Assembly: GCF_003018255.1 (NCBI RefSeq)
Contig: NZ_CP027440.1
Direction: 5' to 3' (one strand)
Length of the DNA: 64,000 bases
Source: Escherichia coli
Lineage (GTDB): Bacteria > Pseudomonadota > Gammaproteobacteria > Enterobacterales > Enterobacteriaceae
The position numbers were made by a program, and so were the translations under genes. The notes beneath the pieces were generated by a model. That model had not been told where the DNA came from. It ran no database searches and saw only the letters and a list, made by a program, of their open reading frames with translations. Of the stretch, positions 17,184 through 40,104 are shown in pieces; position 1 is the stretch's first letter, and each line of letters starts with the position of its first letter.

Positions 17184-18422
17184 TTATTCCGCGTTTTCGT
17201 GAATATGTTTGCTGCTGGCGGGTAGTAAACCGTCGGCACGGAACATCGCTTTAATTCCACGAATCGCCTGACGAATACGGTCGCGGTTTTCAATCAGTGC
17301 AAAGCGAACATGCGTGTCGCCGTAGTCGCCAAAGCCAATCCCCGGCGAGACACAGACCTTCGCTTCGTTCAGCAGCTTCTTGGCAAATTCCAGCGAGCCC
17401 ATGGCAGCATACGGTTCCGGGATTTTCGCCCAGACATACATCGAAGCCTTCGGCATTTCGACCATCCAGCCCGCTTCATGCAGCCCTTTTACCAGTACAT
17501 CACGGCGGCGTTTGTACTGTTCAGCAATGTCGCGCACGCACTGTTGATCGCCCTCCAGCGCCGCAATCGCTGCCACCTGCAACGGCGTAAAGGTGCCGTA
17601 ATCGTGATAGCTTTTAATACGTGCCAGCGCGCTGACCAGCGTTTTGTTGCCAACCATAAAGCCGATACGCCAGCCCGCCATGTTGTAGCTTTTCGACAGC
17701 GTAAAGAACTCGACCGCCACATCGCGTGCACCTGGCACCTGCATGATTGACGGCGCTTTCCAGCCATCGTAGACGATATCGGCATAGGCCAGGTCATGGA
17801 CCACCAGCACATCGTAGCGTTTCGCCAGCGCCACAACCTTTTCGAAGAACTCCAGCTCCACGCATTGCGCGGTTGGATTCGACGGGAAGCCGAGGATCAT
17901 CATCTTCGGTTTCGGATAACTTTCGCGAATGGCGCGTTCCAGTTCGTTGAAGAAATCGACACCTTCCACCAGCGGCACTGAGCGTACCTGCGCCCCGGCA
18001 ATCACCGCGCCGTAAATATGAATCGGGTAGCTTGGATTAGGCACCAGTACAGTGTCACCATGATCCAGCGTCGCCAGCATCAGATGCGCCAGTCCCTCTT
18101 TCGAACCAATAGTGACGATGGCTTCTGATTCCGGGTCGATCTCAATGCCGTAGCGATCCTGATACCAGCGGGAAATGGCGCGACGTAACCGCGGAATGCC
18201 GCGTGACGTGGAGTAACCATGCGTGTCCGGGCGCTGGGCCACCGTACATAATTTTTCGACGATATGCGGCGGAGTCGCACCGTCCGGGTTACCCATACTG
18301 AAATCAATAATATCTTCGCCGCGCCGACGCGCAGCCATTTTCAGTTCAGCGGTAATGTTAAAAACATAGGGCGGGAGACGATCAATGCGCGTAAAGCGAC
18401 GTTCAGGGCGAGTGTCAGCCAT
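17184..18422 (-). CDS. alaC: Glutamate-pyruvate aminotransferase (class I PLP aminotransferase)
   Basis: 412-aa ORF with PLP-lysine context ([15 protein letters not shown]). Confidence 0.93.
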
Positions 18423-18798
18423 AATTTCCTCAGATTAACGTTAGCGCCCGGACCGTCCGAGCGACGCTGCCACGATGGTGGCTGTTTTGAAAATAGCCTG
18501 ATTAATTTCTGTCTGTCCAGCGTTTTAGAACATTTTTATTAATGACGTTAAATGAGGAACTCTGCTTTAAAAACAGGAAATTTATCTGCGCTAACAAGAA
18601 AATTACCACCCATTTTATTAACATAATAATTTCAATAAATTTACTAACCAGAAGTGCATTATCAAGAGATGCATTGCTAATACACCATTTATCTATCAAT
18701 CCCCTTTTAAAATTGTGGTTTTTCCTCAAAAACGGCCTGCTGGTCATCAGCCTTCAGGTTACCTATCATAGAGGTTTAATCCTTATTCAGAGTCACCC

Positions 18799-20496
18799 GT
18801 GCACGAAATATTCAACATGCTGCTGGCGGTCTTCGATCGGGCAGCGTTAATGCTTATCTGCCTGTTCTTTCTCATCCGTATCCGTCTGTTTCGCGAACTG
18901 TTGCACAAGTCGGCGCACTCCCCAAAAGAGTTGCTCGCCGTTACCGCCATTTTCTCGCTGTTCGCCCTGTTCAGCACCTGGTCCGGCGTTCCTGTAGAAG
19001 GTTCGCTGGTGAACGTACGTATTATCGCGGTGATGTCAGGCGGGATTCTGTTTGGCCCGTGGGTGGGCATCATTACCGGCGTGATTGCGGGTATTCACCG
19101 TTATTTAATTGATATCGGTGGCGTGACGGCGATCCCCTGCTTTATCACCAGCATTCTGGCGGGTTGTATATCGGGCTGGATCAACCTGAAAATCCCCAAA
19201 GCACAGCGCTGGCGCGTCGGTATTCTCGGCGGCATGTTGTGTGAAACGTTGACCATGATTCTGGTGATTGTCTGGGCACCAACTACCGCATTGGGGATCG
19301 ATATCGTCTCTAAAATCGGGATTCCAATGATCCTCGGCAGCGTCTGTATCGGCTTTATTGTGTTGCTGGTACAAAGTGTTGAGGGCGAAAAAGAGGCCAG
19401 CGCCGCGCGGCAGGCCAAGCTGGCGCTGGATATCGCCAACAAAACGCTGCCGCTGTTTCGCCATGTCAATAGCGAGTCATTACGCAAGGTCTGCGAAATT
19501 ATCCGCGATGACATTCACGCTGACGCGGTGGCAATCACCAATACCGATCATGTGCTGGCCTACGTTGGCGTGGGTGAACATAACTATCAGAATGGCGATG
19601 ACTTCATTAGCCCGACTACCCGCCAGGCGATGAATTATGGAAAAATCATCATTAAAAACAATGATGAAGCCCACCGCACACCAGAGATTCATTCCATGCT
19701 GGTGATCCCATTGTGGGAGAAAGGCGTTGTGACCGGAACGCTGAAAATTTACTACTGCCACGCGCATCAGATAACCTCGTCATTACAGGAAATGGCGGTC
19801 GGTCTGTCACAAATCATCTCCACGCAACTGGAAGTTTCGCGCGCTGAGCAGCTGCGTGAAATGGCAAATAAGGCAGAGCTTCGCGCCCTGCAAAGCAAAA
19901 TTAATCCCCATTTCCTGTTTAACGCTTTGAACGCTATTTCATCGTCAATCCGTCTGAATCCGGATACCGCTCGCCAGCTGATCTTTAATCTGTCGCGTTA
20001 TCTGCGCTATAACATTGAATTAAAAGACGATGAGCAAATCGATATCAAAAAAGAGCTGTATCAAATTAAAGACTATATTGCCATTGAGCAGGCCCGCTTT
20101 GGCGACAAGCTGACGGTTATCTATGATATTGATGAAGAGGTGAATTGCTGCATTCCCAGCCTGCTGATCCAGCCGTTGGTGGAAAACGCCATTGTCCACG
20201 GTATCCAGCCTTGCAAAGGTAAAGGCGTTGTCACCATCAGCGTTGCAGAGTGCGGTAATCGGGTACGCATTGCGGTGCGGGATACCGGGCACGGCATCGA
20301 TCCAAAGGTGATTGAGCGGGTCGAAGCGAACGAAATGCCGGGCAATAAAATTGGCCTGCTGAATGTCCATCATCGCGTGAAGTTATTGTATGGCGAGGGG
20401 CTGCATATCCGCCGCCTGGAACCAGGAACGGAAATTGCGTTTTACATTCCTAACCAACGCACCCCTGTCGCCTCACAGGCTACGTTATTGCTTTGA
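18799..20496 (+). CDS. ypdA: LytS-type sensor histidine kinase
   Basis: 565-aa ORF; N-terminal multi-TM domain, GAF-like middle, His-kinase motif [10 protein letters not shown] and ATPase domain; a GTG at 18796 could be the true start. Confidence 0.9.
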
Positions 20497-20510
20497 GCCG
20501 GAGTGATATT

Positions 20511-21245
20511 GTGAAAGTCATCATTGTTGAAGACGAATTCCTGGCACAACAGGAACTGAGCTGGCTAATTAAAGAGCACAGCCAGATGGAGATTGTCGGC
20601 ACCTTTGACGACGGTCTGGACGTGTTGAAGTTTTTGCAGCATAACCGCGTCGACGCCATTTTTCTGGATATCAATATTCCGTCGCTGGATGGTGTGTTAC
20701 TGGCACAAAACATCAGCCAGTTCGCCCATAAACCGTTTATTGTGTTTATCACCGCGTGGAAAGAACATGCGGTAGAAGCGTTTGAACTGGAGGCGTTTGA
20801 CTACATTCTCAAACCGTATCAGGAGTCACGCATTACCGGGATGCTGCAAAAACTGGAAGCAGCCTGGCAGCAACAGCAGACCAGCAGTACGCCTGCCGCG
20901 ACGGTAACGCGTGAGAATGACACCATTAATCTGGTGAAAGATGAGCGAATCATCGTCACGCCAATTAACGATATCTATTACGCCGAAGCGCACGAGAAAA
21001 TGACCTTTGTCTATACGCGGCGTGAATCCTACGTAATGCCGATGAACATTACCGAATTTTGCAGCAAACTGCCGCCATCGCATTTTTTCCGCTGCCATCG
21101 CTCATTTTGTGTCAATCTGAACAAAATCCGCGAGATCGAACCGTGGTTTAATAACACCTATATTCTGCGGCTGAAAGATCTGGATTTTGAAGTGCCGGTC
21201 AGCCGCAGCAAAGTTAAAGAATTCCGCCAGTTAATGCATCTTTAA
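20511..21245 (+). CDS. ypdB: LytTR-family response regulator
   Basis: Receiver domain (KVIIVEDEF...DAIFLDINIP) plus LytTR DNA-binding domain; GTG start with GGAG 8 nt upstream; ORF-track start at 20493 uses an unlikely TTG that overlaps the ypdA stop. Confidence 0.88.
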   Translation: MKVIIVEDEFLAQQELSWLIKEHSQMEIVGTFDDGLDVLKFLQHNRVDAIFLDINIPSLDGVLLAQNISQFAHKPFIVFITAWKEHAVEAFELEAFDYILKPYQESRITGMLQKLEAAWQQQQTSSTPAATVTRENDTINLVKDERIIVTPINDIYYAEAHEKMTFVYTRRESYVMPMNITEFCSKLPPSHFFRCHRSFCVNLNKIREIEPWFNNTYILRLKDLDFEVPVSRSKVKEFRQLMHL

Positions 21246-21257
21246 TCGGGAACTTTC

Positions 21258-22115
21258 ATGAAAGCACCAGGCTTGCCCGCCGATCAACAATTTTTCGCCG
21301 ATCTGTTCAGCGGCCTGGTGCTTAACCCGCAACTACTGGGGCGCGTCTGGTTTGCCAGCCAGCCTGCCTCGTTACCGGTGGGCAGTTTATGTATTGATTT
21401 TCCCCGTCTGGATATCGTGCTGCGCGGCGAATACGGCAATCTGCTGGAAGCAAAGCAGCAACGTATGGTTGAAGGAGAAATGCTGTTTATTCCGGCGCGC
21501 GCGGCTAATTTACCGATCAACAACAAACCGGTGATGCTGTTAAGCCTGGTGTTCGCACCGACCTGGCTTGGGTTATCGTTTTACGATAGCCGCACCACGT
21601 CGTTGTTGCATCCGGTTCGCCAGATCCAACTTCCCAGCCTGCAACGCGGCGAAGGTGAAGCAATGCTTACTGCCCTCACCCATCTTAGCCGTTCGCCGCT
21701 GGAGCAGAATATCATTCAGCCGCTGGTGTTAAGTTTGCTGCATCTTTGCCGTAACGTGGTGAATATGCCGCCGGGCAATTCGCAGCCGCGCGGCGATTTT
21801 CTCTATCACAGCATTTGTAACTGGGTTCAGGATAATTATGCCCAGCCGCTCACCCGTGAGAGCGTGGCGCAGTTTTTTAATATCACGCCAAATCATCTGT
21901 CAAAACTGTTTGCTCAGCATGGAACAATGCGTTTTATCGAGTATGTTCGCTGGGTACGAATGGCAAAAGCGAGGATGATTTTGCAAAAATATCATCTGTC
22001 GATTCATGAAGTGGCGCAGCGTTGCGGGTTTCCGGATAGCGACTATTTTTGTCGCGTTTTCCGGCGTCAGTTTGGTCTGACGCCGGGAGAGTACAGCGCC
22101 CGTTTTCAGGGCTAA
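21258..22115 (+). CDS. ypdC: AraC-family transcriptional regulator
   Basis: 285-aa ORF with C-terminal AraC-type HTH (HEVAQRCGFPDSDYFCRVFRRQFGLTPGEY). Confidence 0.9.
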   Translation: MKAPGLPADQQFFADLFSGLVLNPQLLGRVWFASQPASLPVGSLCIDFPRLDIVLRGEYGNLLEAKQQRMVEGEMLFIPARAANLPINNKPVMLLSLVFAPTWLGLSFYDSRTTSLLHPVRQIQLPSLQRGEGEAMLTALTHLSRSPLEQNIIQPLVLSLLHLCRNVVNMPPGNSQPRGDFLYHSICNWVQDNYAQPLTRESVAQFFNITPNHLSKLFAQHGTMRFIEYVRWVRMAKARMILQKYHLSIHEVAQRCGFPDSDYFCRVFRRQFGLTPGEYSARFQG

Positions 22116-22117
22116 CG

Positions 22118-24613
22118 TCAGAAGGTTAATTCTGTTTCCAGCAGCGTCAGGATGCTTTGTGCATCTTGCGCGGCAAACAACGACTGGCGGAAGTTTTTAT
22201 TCACCAGTTTACGCGCCAGCTGCGAGAAGACTTTCACATGATTCATCCCTTCGTTAGCGCCCAGTGTCAGCATGATCACCAGTTCGACTTCGCCCATTTC
22301 TGACTGCCAGTCAACCGGTTTCACCAGTCGGGCAATGCTGATACTGGAATGACGGATCCACTGAGATTTGGTGTGCGGGATCGCTACGCCAAAACCAACG
22401 CCGGTGGTAACAATCTCTTCCCGCTGCCAGACATCCTCTTCCAGCTCGAACGGATGTTCAGTGCGCCCGTTAACGCCGAGGTTACCGCACAGGAACTGGA
22501 TCGCCTGCTCTTTATTGCTAAAAGCCTGATCAACAAAGATATTCTCCAGCGCCAGCAGAGGGCGAACGTCTTCTTCCGGCGTAAACGCGGTGAGTAACGC
22601 TTCAATCTCCTGCGCGCTGCGGCATTCACATGCCTGACGCGCCAGTTCCCGACACGCCTCGCTATCCAGTTGACGAAGCTGGCTTTTCACCGCCGGAATG
22701 CGCGGGCTACTCATACTCAGCTCGTCCAGGCCCAGCCCAAGCAGTAGCGGCAGATAACGGCTTTCACCGCCCAGTTCACCGCAAATACCTACCCATTTAC
22801 CCCGCTGATGCGCAGTGGTAACAATCTGCTGCAACATGCGCAGGAACGATGGCGTAATCGGGTTATACAGCGGCGATACGCGCGGGTTATTACGATCGAC
22901 CGCATACAGATACTGGGTCATATCGTTGGAGCCGATACTGAAGAAATCGACCTCATCGCAGAAGTGATCGATGATGTAGCACACCGACGGCACTTCCACC
23001 ATGATACCCAGCGTAATCGTCTCTGCATGACGCAGGCCATCGCGCTTAAGCTCAACGATCGCTTTTTGGATCTCGCCCTTCACCCATAAGATCTGATCGA
23101 GGCTGTGAACCATTGGGATCATCAACTGGGCGTTGCCGAAACTGGCGGCGCGCAAAATGGCCCGCAGTTGAGTGCGGAACAGGCCAGCAAATTCCGGGTA
23201 AATTCGTACCGCACGATAGCCGAGGAACGGGTTCTCTTCCTGGGGAATGTTGAGGTAAGGAATGCTTTTATCGCCGCCGATGTCCATTGTGCGGAAGATA
23301 ATCGGCTTGTCGCCCGCGGCCAGTAGCACCTGCTGGTAGGCTTCAAATTGCTCCTGCTCGTCCGGCGCACTGTCGCGATCCATATAGAGCATTTCGGTAC
23401 GAAACAGCCCGACGCCTTCCGCGCCGTTGGCAAACGCGCCAGGCGCTTCCAGCGCGGTGCCAATATTCGCCGCGATATCAATGCGCTTGTTATCACGGGA
23501 ATAGGCCAGCTGCGCGGCGGCCTGCGCCTGCTGCTGCTGACGTTTATCCGCCAGCATCTGCGCAACCTGATAATAACCGCTCACCGCGTCATTCGGGTTA
23601 ATCGCCAACACGCCGCACTGGGCGTCAAGCACCGCCGGTTGCCCGGCATAGCGCGCAATGGCATCCAGCGGCAGGCCGCTCAGTACCGGGATCGCCGAGG
23701 CGCGGGCCAGAATCAGGGTATGCGAGGTGCGCCCGGTTTTCTCCAGAATCATGCCCGCAAGATTTTTTAAATTGAGGCTCAAAAACTGGCTAGGGGTTAA
23801 ATCCTCTGCCACCAGAATGGTCGGTTTTTCCAGCACCAGATTGTTGCGCGGTTTTAGTTCCGGCCAGGTGATATGCAGTAACTGTTCGCTGATATCGCGA
23901 ATGTCGCTAACCCGCTCGCGCAGATAATCACTGGCAGAAGCAGAAAGTTTGGCGCAAACCTGCTCCATATTGCTGATGATCGCCGCCCCCAGCCCCTGAT
24001 GCTGTTCTGCCATCAGGTGACGGATATTGCCTGCAAATTCATCATCCTGAATCAGCGACAAATGGGCGCTGAGGATAGTTTTGCTTTCGCCGTCACGCTC
24101 ACGCAATTGCTGGTTCAGTTGCTCGGCAAGCGTTGCCAGGCTGTGCTCCAGCCGGGTGGAATCTTGCGCACTGGCGGGGATCGCCCGGTAACTGTCGAGG
24201 CTGTCGCTCTGTAACAGGGTCAGCGTACCCACGCCGACGCCGCTTGCCAGCACATTGCCGTACAGTAAATCAGGATTCAGACGGCTTAATGAACGCGGCA
24301 GCGGATGCGCCGTCAGTTCTGCCTGCGTTGGCTGGACGCTGTCGCTGTCGATAAAGCGCACCTGGATGTACTCTTCCAGCACGCGCCGCGCCTGCTCTTC
24401 ATCGCTGCCGCTAATGTTCAGGCTGCAACCGTCATTAAATAGGGTGCCGGTGCCAATCAGCGCCAGCGAGCTTTTGGCATCTGCCTTTGCGTTCTGGCGA
24501 TGGTTAATAAAAGTGATTTCGCTTTGCCACTGGCTGCACTGTTCTTTAAGTTCCCACGCCGGACGAGCATGCAGACCGTTTGGCAAAGGACAGAGAAATT
24601 GAATCGTTAACAT
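22118..24613 (-). CDS. fryA: PTS multiphosphoryl transfer protein (HPr-like, Enzyme I-like and IIA domains fused)
   Basis: 831-aa ORF; HPr-like N-terminus (GLHARPA), central EI-like PEP-utilising domain paralogous to ptsI in this window, C-terminal IIA-like domain. Confidence 0.92.
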   Translation of the reverse strand: MLTIQFLCPLPNGLHARPAWELKEQCSQWQSEITFINHRQNAKADAKSSLALIGTGTLFNDGCSLNISGSDEEQARRVLEEYIQVRFIDSDSVQPTQAELTAHPLPRSLSRLNPDLLYGNVLASGVGVGTLTLLQSDSLDSYRAIPASAQDSTRLEHSLATLAEQLNQQLRERDGESKTILSAHLSLIQDDEFAGNIRHLMAEQHQGLGAAIISNMEQVCAKLSASASDYLRERVSDIRDISEQLLHITWPELKPRNNLVLEKPTILVAEDLTPSQFLSLNLKNLAGMILEKTGRTSHTLILARASAIPVLSGLPLDAIARYAGQPAVLDAQCGVLAINPNDAVSGYYQVAQMLADKRQQQQAQAAAQLAYSRDNKRIDIAANIGTALEAPGAFANGAEGVGLFRTEMLYMDRDSAPDEQEQFEAYQQVLLAAGDKPIIFRTMDIGGDKSIPYLNIPQEENPFLGYRAVRIYPEFAGLFRTQLRAILRAASFGNAQLMIPMVHSLDQILWVKGEIQKAIVELKRDGLRHAETITLGIMVEVPSVCYIIDHFCDEVDFFSIGSNDMTQYLYAVDRNNPRVSPLYNPITPSFLRMLQQIVTTAHQRGKWVGICGELGGESRYLPLLLGLGLDELSMSSPRIPAVKSQLRQLDSEACRELARQACECRSAQEIEALLTAFTPEEDVRPLLALENIFVDQAFSNKEQAIQFLCGNLGVNGRTEHPFELEEDVWQREEIVTTGVGFGVAIPHTKSQWIRHSSISIARLVKPVDWQSEMGEVELVIMLTLGANEGMNHVKVFSQLARKLVNKNFRQSLFAAQDAQSILTLLETELTF

Positions 24614-24637
24614 AACCGCTCCGGGTTAATCAGGAGA

Positions 24638-25675
24638 TCATCTGAAATCCGTCAGTTGAACAACCGTCTCACGCGTAAGACGTTGAATAAGGGCAGATAA
24701 AAGCTGCTGCATCTGCAAAATGTCACGGCAATCGGCAATCGATGCGGCGCAATGTCCGTGGCGGGTGGCAGGCCCCATCACCACTGTGGGTACGCCAGTG
24801 CCGGTTAAGTGCACCGCCCCACCGTCCGTGCCACCGTTGCTGAACATATCCGCCTGCAACGGCACGCCAATTTCTGCCGCCACGGTTTCAATCCACGCGG
24901 TAAGTTTTGGCGGCGCAATCAGCGATTTATCGCTTAACACCAGCATCGGCCCGTTACCAATCTGACGATGGTTAGCCGCGCCATAATCAAAGTTTTTCGC
25001 CCAGCAGGCGGTATCAAGCACAATGGCGACGTCCGGCGACACCGCGCGGGTGGCAGTTTGCCCGCCGCGTAATCCCACCTCTTCGCTGGAACTTGCCACC
25101 AGCCACACCTCCGCAGGCAGTTCGGCGTCGTGCAGCTCACGTAGTAACGTCACCAGCAGATAGCAACCGAGGCGATCATCAAAGGCTTTCCCCATCACCC
25201 GCTGGTGAGGGAGAACCTGAAAAGTTGTATCAAAGGTGACGCGATCGCCTGGACGAATTCCCGCCTGCATCACTTCGTCATACGAGCGCGCACCAATGTC
25301 CACGCGTATGGTGCTGACGTCATTCCCCTGCCGGTCGCCGTCAAGCAGGCCTGGAATTTTGCACTCTTCACGGGTAGTGATACGCACCGACTGAAGCTGG
25401 CGGGCAGCCATGCGTACATTGCCAACCGGCAACACATCGATCGCCCCTTCGCGGGAGATGCTGCGCACCATAAATCCCACTTCGTCCATATGCGCACAGA
25501 TCATCACCTTCGGACCTGTCGACTCATTGAGTCGGATCAGCACCGATCCCAGCCCATCAAATCGCACTTCTTTTTGCAGGCGATCCGCTTCTTCCAGCAG
25601 GATCTGCCGTACTTCCTGTTCCGAGGAGGCGATCGCATCTGCCTCGCTCAACGCTTTTAATAACGATAAATCCAT
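24638..25675 (-). CDS. ypdE: M42-family aminopeptidase
   Basis: 345-aa ORF embedded between fryA and ypdF. Confidence 0.88.
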
Positions 25676-26760
25676 TATGCCTCTCCCGTGAGCAACACTG
25701 TTTTCGGCATGGCGTAGAGCACTTCTACGCCTTGCGGGGTGACCAGCACAACATCTTCGATGCGCACGCCCCCTTGCCCTGGCAAATAAATCCCCGGCTC
25801 CACGGTCAGTAACATGCCTGGCTGTAGCGTCGTGGTGTCCCGCGGTGAAAAACGCGGATCCTCATGGACTTCAATACCGATAGCATGACCGGTGTTATGA
25901 CCGAAATAGTCGCCATAACCGGCTTCTGTAATCACCCGGCGCGCGGCGTCGTCAACCTGCTGGCAGCGTACGCCGGGGCGAATCGCGGAGATTGCTGCGA
26001 GCTGTGCCTGCAGGACAATCTGATAGACGTTAAACAGCGGGTGGGATTCGGCACTTACCCCTTCGCCATTCACCAGCAAGGTGCGCGTCATATCAGAGCA
26101 GTAGCCCTGATACAGCGCACCGAAATCGAGAGTGACAAACTCGCCCGCTGCAACAATCTTGTCGCTGGCTTTGCCGTGCGGCAGCGCCCCACGCCAGCCG
26201 CTGGCGACAATGGTATCGAAAGAGGCTTTTTCTGCGCCCTGCTGGCGCATAAACCACTCCAGTTCAGCGGCTATCTCGCGCTCGCTCATCCCCGCCTGAA
26301 TAAAGCGGCGAATATGCTCTGCACCGCGATCGGCAATCCCACAGGCGAGACGGATTTTCTCCACCTCCTCTGGCGTTTTGAGTTGCCGCAGCACATCCGG
26401 CGTGGCGCTAACCAGTTTCGCATTGAGTTCAGACTGCCAGCGGTGCGCGGTTTCCCAACTCACCTGCTGGCCTTCAAAACCGAGCGTTTGCAACTGCTCA
26501 TCGGCAAAGATTTGCCTGACGATGGTGGCAAGCGTGTGCATCGCGTCGAGCAAATGCAGCTGGTAACCTTGCGTGCGGGCTTCTACATCCGCGTAATAGC
26601 GCGAGTCCACCAGAATGTGCGCACTTTCACGGCAAATCACCACATAGCCTGATCCGGTGGAGATCCCCAGATGCGGCTGTTTGTTCTGCCGTGAGGAGAG
26701 AAGCACCGCATCCAGTTGTTGCGCCTTAAGCCAGTCGCGCAGCGAAGCGAGTAATGTCAT
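25675..26760 (-). CDS. ypdF: M24-family Xaa-Pro aminopeptidase
   Basis: 361-aa ORF with M24 metal-ligand context ([13 protein letters not shown]); stop overlaps ypdE start. Confidence 0.88.
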
Positions 26761-26774
26761 CAGGATTGTCCTTC

Positions 26775-28022
26775 TTACAGGCTATCGATTAACAATTTGC
26801 CTTTACGGAACATCATCAGACGCAGGAACACCACCATCAGCGCAGTTATGACTGCCCCCAGCGCGATCCCCGCCATGTAGACGCCGAGGTTAGTGACCAG
26901 CGGCCATGCCCAGATAGCGGACTCCGGGAACCATTGCACTGCGCCCAGCCAGACAGCGGCGGTTGAGCCGACAATCGCGCCGACCATATAGGACGGAATG
27001 GCGGTGATGGGGCTTTCCAGCGCAAACGGAATCGCACCCTCACTGATCCCCATAAACGCCAGGAACATGGCGGTTTTACCCTGCGGATAAAGCTGAGCAC
27101 TGAACAGACGTTTGCCGGTTAAACGGCGGTCGATAATGGTCGCCAGACCCAGACCAATCGGCGGAATAACAATAGCGATGGAACGCGCGGTAACCGGTAA
27201 TACGTGGTCAGTGGTAAAGCTGAAGGCAACGAAACCAGCTGCTTTGTTGATCGGGCCACCAAGGTCGATTGCTGTCGCCGCGGCGATCCCCATCGCGTAC
27301 ATTAGCGCACCCTTCTCACCTGCGGCAGTCAGCACGGTACGGATACCGCCGTTGATCCAGCCACCAAAGGGGGTGATGACGTAGTACATCGCCAGCATGA
27401 CAAAAATGGCGGAAAGAATCGGTAGCAAAAATGTGGTTTTGAACGCTAACAGGAAATCCGGTAACTGGATTTTCTGGTTCATCCACTTCACAAGGTAACC
27501 AGCAACGATAGAAATAATCAGGGCACCAATGAAGGTGGACGGCACCGGCGAAGAGGTCGCCCATTGCATCGTGCTGGGATCGAAGTTCAGCAGTTGCGTC
27601 GGCTGGGTAGACATCAACCCACCGATAAAACCAGCCGGGAACGCCAGTTTGCCACCGATAGAGTTCGCCACAAATGCAGCAAACATCGGAATGGCAAAAC
27701 CAAACAACACGCCGCCGAAGGACTGCGACAACCAGGCAAATTTCAGTAAGGAGAGGTCGAAACCGGAGAATTTCCCGCTATTAAGAGCATCCATGATGCC
27801 GATATCAGCAGGAATTTTAAGCCAGCTATAAGCAATCAGCTGGCTGAAAGCGAGGATCACACCGCCCATAATTAAGGTCGGCACCATGCGTGAAATCCCT
27901 GACATCACATGCTGCGGGAGTTCACCCCAGAAGCTGGTTTTAGAGGCCTGCGGATTCTTAACTGCCGCTGCCGCACCGGATGCGCCAGGCACAACGGTTG
28001 CACTGCGTTTTTTAATGGCCAT
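26775..28022 (-). CDS. fryC: PTS fructose-like EIIC permease
   Basis: 415-aa polytopic membrane ORF. Confidence 0.9.
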
Positions 28023-28043
28023 AACAATTATCCCTGTCGAATA

Positions 28044-28370
28044 TTACTGTTGTTCAGAGGCAATCATCTCTTCGATTTCTTTGATGATGCCCGCAGCGTT
28101 TTTAATTGCGTCCTGCAAAGTGATTTCATAAACGTCGCGTGATTCGAAACGTTCGTTATCTTCCGGGGTAACCGCCACGGAGTGGATGATGATGGTCGCT
28201 TCGGCGATATCCTGCGCGGTCAGGCGATTCTGGATGCCGTCCGCGCCCTGAGTTTCAATTTTCACTTCATAGCCTGCTTCCACCGCCGCTTCTTCCAGCG
28301 CCTGGGCTGCCATAAAGGTGTGAGTCAGACCCATCGGGCAGGCACATAAAGCAATCAGTTTCTTACTCAT
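28044..28370 (-). CDS. fryB: PTS fructose-like EIIB component
   Basis: Start chosen at MSKKLIALCACPMGL (108 aa), with active-site Cys context, rather than upstream ATG at 28421. Confidence 0.88.
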   Translation of the reverse strand: MSKKLIALCACPMGLTHTFMAAQALEEAAVEAGYEVKIETQGADGIQNRLTAQDIAEATIIIHSVAVTPEDNERFESRDVYEITLQDAIKNAAGIIKEIEEMIASEQQ

Positions 28371-28536
28371 CGTTAATTCCTCGTTCAGTGATAGTTGACG
28401 AGTGAAATTATGAACGTGCAAAACAAATCGCCGTTACCAGACAAATAATGCATTTACTGGAGAATTAATCCCGCTGTACGGAAGTGTGACGCAGGTCGGC
28501 CTTGTGAGGGGACACAAAGGAAAATTGAATTAACTG

Positions 28537-28574
28537 TATGATTTAAAAGATTATCGGGAGAGTTACCTCCCGAT
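28537..28574 (-). terminator. Putative intrinsic terminator after glk
   Basis: 9-bp stem TATCGGGAG / CTCCCGATA; U-tract on the minus-strand transcript. Confidence 0.65.
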
Positions 28575-28588
28575 ATAACAGGAAGGAT

Positions 28589-29554
28589 TTAGAGAATGTG
28601 ACCTAAGGTCTGGCGTAAATGTGCACCGGAACCAAGAAGGCCCGGATTGTCATGGACGATGAGATACACCGGAATATCATGGACATATTCTTTAAAGCGC
28701 CCTTTATCTTCAAATGCGGCACGGAAACCAGAGGCTTTGAAGAACTCAAGGAAGCGCGGCACGATACCACCCGCAATAAACACGCCGCCAAATGTCCCGA
28801 GATTGAGCGCCAGATTGCCGCCAAAACGGCCCATAATGACGCAAAACAGCGACAACGCGCGGCGGCAATCGGTGCAGCTGTCAGCCAGCGCGCGTTCGGT
28901 AATATCTTTTGGCTTGAGATTTTCTGGCAGGCGGTTGTCGGCTTTAACAATTGCGCGATACAAATTCACCAGCCCAGGGCCAGAAAGCACGCGCTCTGCC
29001 GAAACATGACCAATTTCTGCACGCAGTATTTCGAGGATAATGCCCTCTTCTTCACTATTCGGCGCAAAATCAACGTGACCGCCTTCGCCTGGCAAGCTTA
29101 CCCAACGCTTATCGACATGGACCAGATGCGCAACCCCTAGCCCCGTTCCGGCACCGTAAACCGCAATAGGCTTACCTTCTACCGGTTCTGCGCCACCAAA
29201 CTGAATCAGATGCTCTTTTTTCAGCATCGGGATCGCCATCGATACAGCGGTAAAATCGTTGATAATTTCCAGATGGCTAAAACCGAGATTCTTTTTCATT
29301 TCGGCAATTGAGAACGCCCAGGTATGGTTGGTCATTGCCACCCAGTCACCGGTAATTGGGCAAGCGATGGCAATACAGCCGTCTTGCACCTCGATCTTAT
29401 GTTCTTCAAGATAAACGCGAATGACCGCTTCGAGGCTGGGGTAATCAAGCCCTGAATAGGTCTTAGCCTGCGAGATTTCACCACTGGCAATATCACACAG
29501 AGCAAGACGTGCGTTGGTGCCGCCCACATCACCGACTAATGCATACTTTGTCAT
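28589..29554 (-). CDS. glk: Glucokinase
   Basis: 321-aa ORF; N-terminal ATP-binding motif ([14 protein letters not shown]). Confidence 0.95.
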
Positions 29555-29757
29555 TCTTCAACTGCTCCGCTAAAGTCAAAATAATTCTTTCTCACACTGT
29601 AAATACCTGGGGGCATAACAACAACGCCGGAAAGGCAGGCTCCCTGTAAATATCGATCTGGGTCACACAATTACTTTATCGTTTCAGCACCAATTGCAGC
29701 GATGCCTTTTTGCAAGCTGGGCAAACTAAGTATCTGACCCCGCATAAGGAATAGAAC

Positions 29758-31014
29758 ATGCTCCATCCGCGAGCCAGAACCATGTTGTTATTATCGCTCC
29801 CCGCCGTGGCAATTGGGATTGCGTCCAGTCTTATTCTGATTGTGGTGATGAAAATCGCCTCGGTATTACAGAATTTGCTCTGGCAACGACTGCCGGGAAC
29901 TCTGGGGATAGCCCAGGATTCACCTCTCTGGATCATCGGTGTATTAACGCTAACGGGTATTGCAGTGGGGTTGGTTATCCGTTTCAGCCAGGGTCATGCC
30001 GGACCAGACCCCGCCTGTGAACCGCTGATCGGCGCACCAGTTCCGCCCTCTGCGCTACCAGGACTTATCGTAGCATTAATTCTTGGTCTTGCTGGTGGCG
30101 TCAGCCTGGGGCCAGAACATCCGATCATGACCGTCAATATCGCCCTTGCGGTTGCCATTGGCGCTCGTCTGTTACCGCGCGTCAACCGAATGGAGTGGAC
30201 TATTTTAGCCTCTGCCGGAACCATCGGCGCGCTGTTTGGCACACCTGTTGCGGCGGCGTTGATATTTTCGCAAACCTTAAATGGCAGTAGTGAAGTTCCG
30301 CTATGGGATCGTCTTTTTGCGCCGTTAATGGCGGCAGCAGCTGGTGCACTAACTACCGGATTATTTTTCCATCCTCATTTTTCACTGCCCATTGCGCATT
30401 ACGGACAGATGCAAATGACCGATATTCTCAGTGGTGCAATTGTCGCGGCGATTGCCATCGCAGCAGGGATGGTCGCCGTATGGTGCTTACCACGATTGCA
30501 CGCGATGATGCATCAAATGAAAAATCCGGTGCTCGTGCTGGGTATTGGCGGATTTATTCTCGGTATTCTGGGGGTTATGGGTGGACCAGTTTCGCTGTTT
30601 AAAGGGCTGGATGAGATGCAGCAGATGGTGGCAAATCAGGCTTTCAGCACCAGCGATTACTTTTTGCTGGCGGTGATTAAACTTGCCGCCCTGGTCGTTG
30701 CTGCCGCCAGTGGCTTTCGCGGTGGGCGAATCTTCCCGGCAGTGTTTGTCGGCGTGGCATTAGGGTTGATGCTGCATGAGCACGTCCCCGCCGTTCCAGC
30801 GGCAATAACCGTTTCCTGCGCTATTCTCGGCATCGTGCTGGTGGTAACACGCGATGGCTGGTTAAGTCTTTTTATGGCGGCAGTCGTTGTACCCAATACC
30901 ACATTGCTACCGCTGCTCTGTATCGTCATGCTTCCGGCATGGCTGTTATTAGCAGGTAAGCCGATGATGATGGTCAATCGTCCGAAGCAACAGCCCCCCC
31001 ACGATAACGTTTAG
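29758..31014 (+). CDS. yfeO: ClC-like (voltage-gated chloride channel family) membrane protein
   Basis: 418-aa polytopic ORF with GxxxG-rich helices. Confidence 0.88.
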
Positions 31015-36817: not shown

Positions 36818-36893
<76 letters not shown>

Positions 36894-36932
36894 ACGATGC
36901 GTTTACGTACCAAATTTGCTGGGTGCAAAATT

Positions 36933-37008
<76 letters not shown>

Positions 37009-39706: not shown

Positions 39707-39782
39707 GGGTGATTAGCTCAGCTGGGAGAGCACCTCCCTTACAAGGAGGGGGTCGGCGGTTCGATCCCGTCATCACCCACCA
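39707..39782 (+). tRNA. valU: tRNA-Val (anticodon UAC)
   Basis: 76-nt match to GGGTGATTAGCTCAGCTGGGAGAGCACCTCCCTTACAAGGAGGGGGTCGGCGGTTCGATCCCGTCATCACCCACCA. Confidence 0.95.
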
Positions 39783-39826
39783 ACTACTTTATGTAGTCTC
39801 CGCCGTGTAGCAAGAAATTGAGAAGT

Positions 39827-39902
39827 GGGTGATTAGCTCAGCTGGGAGAGCACCTCCCTTACAAGGAGGGGGTCGGCGGTTCGATCCCGTCATCACCCAC
39901 CA
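39827..39902 (+). tRNA. valX: tRNA-Val (anticodon UAC)
   Basis: Identical second copy. Confidence 0.95.
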
Positions 39903-39948
39903 CTTTCTCGCCAGCTAGATTTCTTGTAACAATGTGAAGTACCGAAGT

Positions 39949-40024
39949 GGGTGATTAGCTCAGCTGGGAGAGCACCTCCCTTACAAGGAGGGGGTCGGCG
40001 GTTCGATCCCGTCATCACCCACCA
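39949..40024 (+). tRNA. valY: tRNA-Val (anticodon UAC)
   Basis: Identical third copy. Confidence 0.95.
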
Positions 40025-40028
40025 CTTC

Positions 40029-40104
40029 GGGTCGTTAGCTCAGTTGGTAGAGCAGTTGACTTTTAATCAATTGGTCGCAGGTTCGAATCCTGCACGACCC
40101 ACCA
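40029..40104 (+). tRNA. lysV: tRNA-Lys (anticodon UUU)
   Basis: 76-nt match to GGGTCGTTAGCTCAGTTGGTAGAGCAGTTGACTTTTAATCAATTGGTCGCAGGTTCGAATCCTGCACGACCCACCA, 4 nt after valY. Confidence 0.95.

Follow-up and report, generated by a model that had tools for sequence, protein, structure and literature searches.

Why do the genes of a sensor kinase, a response regulator and an AraC-type regulator stand in one row on the Escherichia coli chromosome? The row in question, ypdA-ypdB-ypdC, belongs to a 64,000-nucleotide stretch of E. coli DNA (contig NZ_CP027440.1 of RefSeq assembly GCF_003018255.1; this whole stretch is referred to as the window), and an earlier note on this DNA had taken it for a three-regulator operon. 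We found that the locus is in all likelihood a composite, in which two independent units, the ypdAB pair and a cassette uniting ypdC with the fry phosphotransferase system (PTS) genes, have come to lie end to end. The three-regulator operon would then probably not be an evolutionary unit, but a by-product of the cassette insertion, and YpdC appears as a probable regulator of the neighboring fry operon. This reading as a whole, i.e., the composite locus, the activation of fry by YpdC and the transcription of ypdC by read-through, we consider probable rather than assured.

Gene Context of ypdC, ypdAB and fry

The genes of the locus and its flanks are the following (coordinates were transferred from the RefSeq annotation of a 100% identical locus):

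17184-18422, minus strand: alaC, alanine transaminase, the ancestral divergent neighbor of ypdA (RefSeq)
18799-20496, plus strand: ypdA (pyrS), LytS-type sensor histidine kinase, 565 amino acids (aa), GTG start (Pfam, RefSeq)
20511-21245, plus strand: ypdB (pyrR), response regulator, 244 aa, GTG start (Pfam, RefSeq)
21258-22115, plus strand: ypdC, AraC-family regulator, 285 aa (Pfam, AlphaFold2 (AF2) model, Foldseek, synteny with fry)
22116-22117, no strand: tail-to-tail junction of ypdC and fryA, 2 bp between the stop codons (ypdC stop 22115, fryA stop 22118)
22118-24613, minus strand: fryA, multiphosphoryl transfer protein, HPr-Enzyme I-EIIA (Fru-type) fusion (Pfam; RefSeq label ptsP)
24638-25675, minus strand: ypdE, M42 aminopeptidase (Pfam Peptidase_M42, annotation)
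25675-26760, minus strand: ypdF, M24 aminopeptidase (Pfam Creatinase_N and Peptidase_M24, annotation)
26775-28022, minus strand: fryC, PTS EIIC component (Pfam PTS_EIIC, annotation)
28044-28370, minus strand: fryB, PTS EIIB component, first gene of the fry operon (Pfam PTS_IIB, annotation)
28545-28574, minus strand: probable glk terminator, hairpin and T-run, at the right edge of the inserted cassette (read from the sequence)
28589-29554, minus strand: glk (RefSeq annotation)

According to the Pfam matches of FryB, FryC and FryA, the fry operon encodes a fructose-family PTS with its own general components, namely EIIB, EIIC and a fused HPr-EI-EIIA (type 2) protein.

A set of diverse YpdC orthologues was aligned and one genome per GTDB species was scanned, which yielded 36 species-level ypdC loci with 48-99% YpdC identity and one unrelated helix-turn-helix (HTH) match. 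Synteny was established by comparing ten window proteins with the collected loci by tblastn. We found that fryA, together with ypdE, ypdF, fryC and fryB as far as the covered sequence reaches, lies convergently downstream of ypdC in 35 of the 36 loci, the exception being Citrobacter amalonaticus. The stop codons of ypdC and fryA are separated by -4 to +13 bp in 24 loci, representing at least 10 named or placeholder genus-level groups; this junction therefore seems ancestral to the ypdC-fryA pair. In turn, ypdA-ypdB precedes ypdC in only 15 of the 36 loci, all of them from Escherichia, Citrobacter, Pseudocitrobacter or Kluyvera, where the ypdB-ypdC gap measures 9-24 bp. The other 21 carry ypdC without ypdAB. 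In Enterobacter, Lelliottia, Huaxiibacter, Pluralibacter, Superficieibacter, Buttiauxella and Serratia, the ypdC-fry genes occupy other contexts, with neighbors that include an alpha/beta-hydrolase-like, a flavin-reductase or an rnk-like gene. Judged by this synteny, ypdC is part of the fry cassette.

The converse arrangement was found as well. YpdA orthologues with 88-92% identity are encoded in Cronobacter, Enterobacter vonholyi and Phytobacter within the order alaC-ypdA-ypdB-glk, and neither ypdC nor fry is present. In these cassette-free loci the stop codons of ypdB and glk are at most 36 bp apart, and in Phytobacter the called genes overlap. The alaC gene adjoins ypdA in every ypdAB-bearing locus in which the upstream flank is covered, the truncated locus L005 excepted. 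In Salmonella arizonae and diarizonae, alaC adjoins ypdC-fry-glk; ypdA and ypdB are gone, and ypdC and fry are intact. The scar left in both subspecies (L010, 9416-10000; L036, 9415-10000) still holds a recognizable counterpart of the region upstream of ypdA (18423-18727 of the window), and in arizonae also a degraded 3' end of ypdB (~76 bp, ~70% identity). By these remnants, ypdAB has evidently been deleted in the two Salmonella subspecies and the ypdC-fry part retained.

The base composition differs along the locus: the guanine-cytosine (GC) fraction is 0.56-0.59 in the fry genes (22300-27400) vs. 0.47-0.53 in ypdAB, ypdC and glk (18700-21400 and 28000-29800). The higher GC of fry is consistent with a separate origin of the fry cassette. 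The right edge of the cassette would lie at a hairpin directly 3' of the glk stop codon and just upstream of the fry promoter block, ATCGGGAG-GTAACT-CTCCCGAT, followed by a T-run. The simplest history would start from an ancestral alaC-ypdAB-glk order, into which a ~7.3-kb cassette (ypdC facing fryA-ypdE-ypdF-fryC-fryB) was inserted between ypdB and glk. This in all likelihood happened in an ancestor of Escherichia, Citrobacter, Kluyvera, Pseudocitrobacter and Salmonella, before Salmonella, Escherichia and Citrobacter split.

Several individual loci deviate from the common order. In a number of Citrobacter and Kluyvera genomes, extra DNA of 0.3-1.1 kb or 7-8 kb separates ypdC from fryA (L008 and L009, 10856-11990; L016, 6567-14740; L037, 10856-17700), and the L037 insert contains formate-dehydrogenase-like molybdopterin and Fe-S genes. 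In Citrobacter amalonaticus (L007, 10859-20855), the genes 3' of ypdC encode a pseudouridine synthase and a LysR-type protein. In Huaxiibacter (L025, 9334-10003), Enterobacter soli (L027, 9364-9988) and Lelliottia (L032, 9331-10003), a flavin-reductase-like gene on the ypdC strand ends 1-3 bp ahead of the ypdC start; close coupling of ypdC to an unrelated upstream gene thus occurs in these three groups also. Loci labeled 'Chryseobacterium sp. 18061' (L035) and 'Citrobacter sp. 18056' (L024) show an Enterobacter/Pluralibacter-like ypdC-fry organization with 67-68% YpdC identity and no ypdAB; for these two, a wrong organism label or contamination of the assembly is the probable cause. Fused products, i.e., YpdA-YpdB (806 aa), receiver/LytTR fragments joined to YpdC, and FryA-YpdE (~1029 aa), are encoded in a few E. 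coli assemblies (P0003, P0113, P0125, P0242/P0243, P0316) and probably reflect frameshifts, stop-codon losses or assembly errors.

Conserved Layout of the fryB Promoter Region

An alignment of 17 loci from differing chromosomal contexts revealed a conserved block of ~95 bp upstream of fryB, whatever the flanking gene. In the 5'-to-3' direction it comprises GA-N6-TCACAYTT, two direct repeats with the consensus GCATYAWTTRTCCRG and a 20-bp period, ~24 nt of variable sequence, CATAAT, a Shine-Dalgarno sequence and the fryB ATG. The corresponding elements of the window are:

28482-28503, minus strand: CRP-like 22-mer AAGGCCGACCTGCGTCACACTT (GA-N6-TCACA conserved; perfect right half)
28457-28471, minus strand: R1, distal direct repeat (GGATTAATTCTCCAG), predicted YpdC half-site, 20 bp upstream of R2 (conservation)
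28437-28451, minus strand: R2, promoter-proximal direct repeat (GCATTATTTGTCTGG), predicted YpdC half-site (conserved in 29 loci; sole exact pattern match in the window)
28407-28412, minus strand: CATAAT, putative -10 hexamer of the fryB promoter (nearly invariant among the 17 aligned loci; CATACT in Serratia)

The bipartite pattern R1-N5-R2 matches once per locus in 28 loci, in each case ahead of fryB, and has no match in loci that lack fry. The spacing is equally constant: 24 nt separate the end of R2 from CATAAT in 24 of 29 loci (23 nt in 4), and the center of the CRP-like site lies 80 nt from the -10 hexamer in 25 loci (79 nt in 3). The layout is kept even in L042, a rearranged cassette with the AraC gene co-directional upstream of fryB, which has a near-consensus TGTGG-N6-TCACA at the same place. 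Taking transcription to start 7 nt after the -10 hexamer, R2 would extend from about -51 to -37 and R1 from about -71 to -57, with the CRP-like site centered at about -92.5. At AraC/RhaS-type promoters (araBAD/rhaBAD), direct repeats in tandem adjoin the -35 region, and a CRP site lies ~40 bp upstream of them. As far as its predicted sites go, the fryB promoter has a conserved layout of this AraC/CRP type.

Single half-site matches elsewhere in the window stayed at chance level. One of them, at the ypdB/ypdC junction (21236-21250, 3 mismatches), was considered as a YpdC autoregulatory site and rejected, as 13 matches were observed vs. 11.7 expected at that stringency. The regions upstream of ypdC, too, spoke against such a site, as they showed no conservation across genera and contexts.

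Properties of the YpdC Protein

What kind of regulator would act at such a promoter? YpdC carries a C-terminal double HTH at residues 204-281 (Pfam HTH_18, 1.2e-20; HTH_AraC, 5.5e-13), and no Pfam family matches residues 1-200. Its AF2 model (predicted local distance difference test score, pLDDT, 84) places strands at residues 30-126 and helices at 132-168. With this model, Foldseek returned full-length matches to Rns, CsvR and ToxT (E~1e-8), a match to the RhaR regulatory domain (E 3e-3), and DNA-binding-domain matches of the YesN/AraT type (6swi, 3lsg). The N-terminus is thus predicted to form a cupin-like beta-barrel sensor domain followed by a helical linker. Combined with the AraC DNA-binding domain, such an N-domain speaks for a conventional ligand-type AraC regulator, not a receiver-coupled one. 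As YpdC would have its own cupin-like sensor and lacks a receiver, it is presumably not wired to the kinase by phosphotransfer.

Both YpdC domains are conserved across genera, with a mean column identity of 73%, and by this measure YpdC is under clear purifying selection. A profile of the N-domain retrieved 112 cluster representatives, many of them fragments, among 1.84 billion proteins. The nearest distant full-length relative (P0368, from a 6-Mb genome) is encoded co-directionally just upstream of fryB-fryC-M24-M42-fryA, where the intergenic region retains the promoter layout and the TGTGG-N6-TCACA described above, and three more distant N-domain relatives adjoin other fructose-family PTS genes; all four informative contexts of distant relatives are thus PTS-linked, one further contig being too short. 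Many shortened or frameshifted ypdC products of 170-250 aa, 96-99% identical, were also found (e.g., P0074, P0081, P0105), some of them from Shigella flexneri/dysenteriae and one cluster with 200 members, which suggests that ypdC is decaying in Shigella lineages.

YpdC as a Candidate Activator of fry

We infer the following course of events. YpdC, a two-domain AraC-type activator, would bind a ligand related to the Fry substrate. Ligand-bound YpdC would occupy R1 and R2, the two 15-bp direct repeats that recur with a 20-bp period between about -71 and -37 of the fryB promoter, and, jointly with CRP at its site near -92.5, would then activate transcription of fry. Read-through from the ypdA promoter probably accounts for ypdC transcription in the Escherichia group, since ypdC there follows ypdB closely: it starts 9-24 bp after that gene, no promoter-like site lies ahead of it and its upstream region is not conserved. 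Two features of the cassette favor a role of YpdC in fry regulation: the ypdC-fry linkage survives relocation as well as inversion of the gene order, which is good evidence of functional coupling, and the cassette contains no regulator gene other than ypdC.

One could go further and suppose that the two units became cross-wired in Escherichia and Citrobacter, so that pyruvate sensing and Fry substrate use dampen one another, be it by transcriptional interference or by antisense RNA. Devoid of its own promoter, ypdC would depend on that of ypdA, which would thereby determine how much fry activator is made; with no terminator in the 2-bp junction, induced fry transcription would run antisense through ypdC into ypdB and ypdA. 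To this extension we give little credence.

Several points weigh against YpdC as the activator of fry. C. amalonaticus (L007) keeps ypdABC intact and has no fry genes within 10 kb. The reciprocal search with FryA was uninformative on fry without ypdC, since the 120 matches listed were from Escherichia, Shigella or Citrobacter or of similar identity. At the promoter, the left half of the CRP-like site is weak in E. coli, the fry repeats have a period of 20 bp, not the 21 bp of the araI repeats, and the fryB transcription start, on which the positions depend, is a prediction. Co-transcription of ypdC with ypdAB, though probable, is deduced from spacing and missing signals. The proposed link between YpdC and fry is itself a genomic one: ChIP-exo (chromatin immunoprecipitation with exonuclease digestion) in K-12 gave zero YpdC binding sites under the conditions used (PMC8464067), and the literature searched yielded no paper on the function of YpdC or the control of fry, a search outside which Fried et al. 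(2013), which may mention ypdC, and Vilhena et al. (2018) fell.

Three other explanations compete with this proposal. YpdA, YpdB and YpdC could form one integrated module, with YpdC modulating, e.g., yhjX, ypdAB or other pyruvate-responsive genes. The three genes do share a strand, with gaps of 14 and 12 nt and nothing terminator-like between them, the arrangement is kept at a 9-24 bp ypdB-ypdC gap in 15 Escherichia, Citrobacter, Kluyvera and Pseudocitrobacter loci, and laboratories remove ypdABC together (PMC10653868). Yet ypdAB exists without ypdC in Cronobacter, Enterobacter and Phytobacter, ypdC without ypdAB is the more frequent state (21 of 36 loci), and Salmonella lost ypdAB and kept ypdC; moreover, yhjX induction is described as requiring YpdA (or BtsS) and YpdB, with YpdC unmentioned (PMC4847170, PMC9765748). 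We regard an integrated module as very improbable. A different assignment of the fryB repeats, to another protein such as a global sugar regulator, with YpdC acting elsewhere or indirectly, would fit a repeat consensus derived from conservation and the location of ypdC, which stands at the operon's distal 3' end, whereas the classical araC gene diverges from the promoter. It is at odds with ypdC being the sole regulator gene to travel with the operon, with the AraC/RhaS-type arrangement of repeats and CRP site, and with the fact that the repeats diverge most where YpdC does, i.e., in Serratia (48% identity) and in L042, and it strikes us as improbable.

Finally, YpdC might be an orphan regulator with distal targets, or a cryptic and nearly silent gene, for which the fry linkage is positional hitch-hiking. 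The ChIP-exo result and the C. amalonaticus locus can be read this way, as can the many shortened ypdC variants of Shigella-type sequences and the fact that YpdC is still listed among the uncharacterised AraC-family factors (PMC4797297, PMC6055005). A missing ChIP signal is, however, what one would expect of an uninduced, poorly expressed AraC-type activator; purifying selection over both domains does not suit a silent gene, and hitch-hiking fits poorly with a linkage that persists through relocation and inverted gene order and with distant N-domain relatives that are PTS-linked too. An orphan or cryptic YpdC is accordingly an unlikely explanation, and a dedicated regulator of fry the one we prefer.

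YpdA and YpdB as the PyrSR Pyruvate System

The other unit of the locus is well known. The part of the window from 18500 to 22300 is E. coli chromosome, 100% identical to E. coli JNE23-011, and nearly all complete E. coli genomes (5412 of 5426) contain it over 80% or more of its length. YpdA combines the domains 5TM-5TMR_LYT (2e-42), GAF (6e-07), His_kinase (PF06580; 4e-25) and HATPase_c (7e-11), with the phospho-accepting histidine H371 in NPHFLFN; YpdB consists of Response_reg (2e-24) and LytTR (2.4e-34), with the phospho-accepting aspartate D53 in IFLDINIP. The gene identities and domain types given in the earlier note, a LytS-type kinase, a receiver-LytTR regulator and an AraC-type regulator, were thus confirmed by Pfam and RefSeq. 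Given the RefSeq names ypdA and ypdB and a 100% identical protein cluster named YpdA (P0122), ypdAB of the window is the published system itself, not a mere relative.

E. coli has two LytS/LytTR systems that take part in pyruvate sensing, and YpdA/YpdB, since renamed PyrS/PyrR, is one of them (PMC10653868, PMC5552118). Extracellular pyruvate, which had been suggested for testing as a YpdA signal, is in fact its demonstrated stimulus (PMC4847170, PMC5552118, PMC7660256). The yhjX promoter contains the direct repeat GGCATTTCAT-N11-GGCATTTCAT, to which YpdB (D53) binds and thereby induces this gene (PMC4847170, where a D53E variant was used); 3 mM pyruvate raises yhjX several hundred-fold (PMC7660256), and BtsS is able to signal via YpdB (PMC9765748). 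In the pathway as given in the literature, YpdA senses extracellular pyruvate with low affinity and phosphorylates YpdB at D53, which then acts on the yhjX promoter. ypdABC is an annotated core locus of E. coli, and with the signal (pyruvate) and the target (yhjX) of YpdAB published, this finding is already known. A role in carbon status, proposed before from the proximity of fry and glk, is therefore right for YpdAB, having been established by experiment and not implied by position; likewise, that the targets are not obvious holds for YpdC only, the YpdB target being published and the conserved fryB promoter offering a candidate for YpdC.

The yhjX gene lies outside the window, elsewhere on the chromosome. 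Within the window the single YpdB motif is not enriched (8 one-mismatch matches observed vs. 8.0 expected), and the bipartite operator is absent from all 41 loci collected; the neighboring genes are therefore not evident YpdB targets. The closest parallel is the paralogous high-affinity LytS/LytTR system BtsS/BtsR (YehU/YehT), which shares with YpdAB the domain architecture, the pyruvate signal, an output to a single transporter gene via LytTR direct repeats, and cross-talk between the two systems (PMC10653868, PMC5552118, PMC9765748). It differs from YpdAB in its locus, its target (btsT), its higher affinity and the lack of an adjacent AraC gene.

Gene Boundaries and Transcription Signals

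Two further elements were read or predicted at the ypdAB genes:

18603-18769, plus strand: alaC-ypdA intergenic region, putative ypdA promoter region (consensus scan only; site counts equal to shuffle expectation)
20500-20503, plus strand: Shine-Dalgarno GGAG of ypdB, within the 14-nt ypdA-ypdB gap and 7 nt before the start (read from the sequence)

The spacing of the three regulator genes had been described before, partly in error. The start of the row had been set at 18796, 3 nt ahead of the annotated GTG start of ypdA (18799). An overlap of ypdA and ypdB had also been claimed; ypdA ends at 20496 and the GTG of ypdB stands at 20511, which leaves 14 nt containing the GGAG. The overlap arises only if TTG 20493 is used as the ypdB start, a candidate we rejected: it has no Shine-Dalgarno sequence, is not annotated and would add 6 residues ahead of a receiver domain that, in the GTG-start protein, begins at residue 3 (Pfam). 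The orthologous ypdA-ypdB pairs do not overlap either (gaps of 12 nt in Cronobacter, 3 nt in Enterobacter and 12 nt in Phytobacter). The distances around ypdC proved accurate: 12 nt lie between the ypdB stop (21245) and the ypdC start (21258), and 2 bp between the end of ypdC (22115) and the convergent fryA stop (22118).

A consensus scan of 18300-22500 returned no sigma-70-like promoter or terminator-like site between ypdA, ypdB and ypdC or at the ypdC/fryA junction, the overall site counts of the scan being equal to shuffle expectation. Two weak sigma-70-like candidates are present in the alaC-ypdA intergenic region (18603-18630 and 18741-18769). A moderately stable RNA fold at 22080-22200 was considered as a terminator and dismissed as too weak (z = -2.6, with the U-run ~80 nt into fryA). 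Given the tight same-strand packing and nothing terminator-like between the genes, co-transcription of ypdABC is plausible, and to this extent the description as a three-regulator operon stands; as one functional architecture it does not, judging from the separate synteny of ypdC and ypdAB. In the literature, ypdABC has been handled as one unit ('ypdA ypdB ypdC b2380-2'; PMC2731931), and a ΔypdABC strain exists (PMC10653868). Rfam matches in the whole window were tRNAs only, with none at the ypdABC/fry locus; these tRNA gene clusters, unrelated to ypdABC, comprise two copies at 36821-37008 (minus strand) and four at 39707-40101 (plus strand).

Comparison with Known Systems and Implications

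The proposed pairing of YpdC with fry has close counterparts among characterized regulators. With AraC at PBAD and RhaS at PrhaBAD, where class II activation involves CRP, YpdC shares, according to its model, the two-domain design of a cupin-like sensor and a double HTH, and the fryB promoter would have a comparable set of predicted elements: a pair of direct-repeat half-sites that reaches to about -37 and a CRP-like site centered near -92.5. Unlike in those systems, the repeat period is the 20 bp already mentioned and ypdC converges with the last gene of the operon instead of diverging from its promoter. ChbR, an AraC-family regulator of the E. coli PTS operon chbBCARFG, acts with CRP; it is encoded inside the chb operon and works with NagC. 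The proposed YpdC-fry pair would resemble it as an AraC-type regulator dedicated to a PTS sugar operon and acting with CRP, while ypdC lies outside its operon, tail-to-tail with fryA, and no second repressor is evident.

Two other cryptic operons of E. coli, frvABXR and sgc, specify a fructose-like PTS and contain a gene of the M42 peptidase type. Fry resembles them in its Fru-family PTS, its M42-family protein and, as proposed here, a dedicated regulator; unlike them, it also encodes an M24 peptidase and a fused HPr-EI-EIIA protein of its own. In turn, YesN/AraT-type regulators, whose DNA-binding domains match the YpdC model, do combine two-component signaling with an AraC output. There, the response regulator carries the AraC domain as its own output, whereas YpdC is without a receiver and has its own predicted cupin-like sensor.

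Few AraC-family regulators of E. coli are still uncharacterised, YpdC being among them, and fry is a cryptic PTS without a known substrate. Our analysis places ypdC with the fry cassette and points to a conserved candidate operator at 28437-28471, accompanied by a CRP-like site and a predicted -10 element. Since deletion of ypdABC would also remove the likely fry regulator, phenotypes of ΔypdABC strains may not be purely those of the two-component system. The candidate operator would provide an experimental handle for the inducer of YpdC and thereby for the Fry substrate. With the pyruvate system already described, the remaining new value of this locus would lie in a modest but concrete and testable pairing of the orphan regulator ypdC with the cryptic fry PTS.

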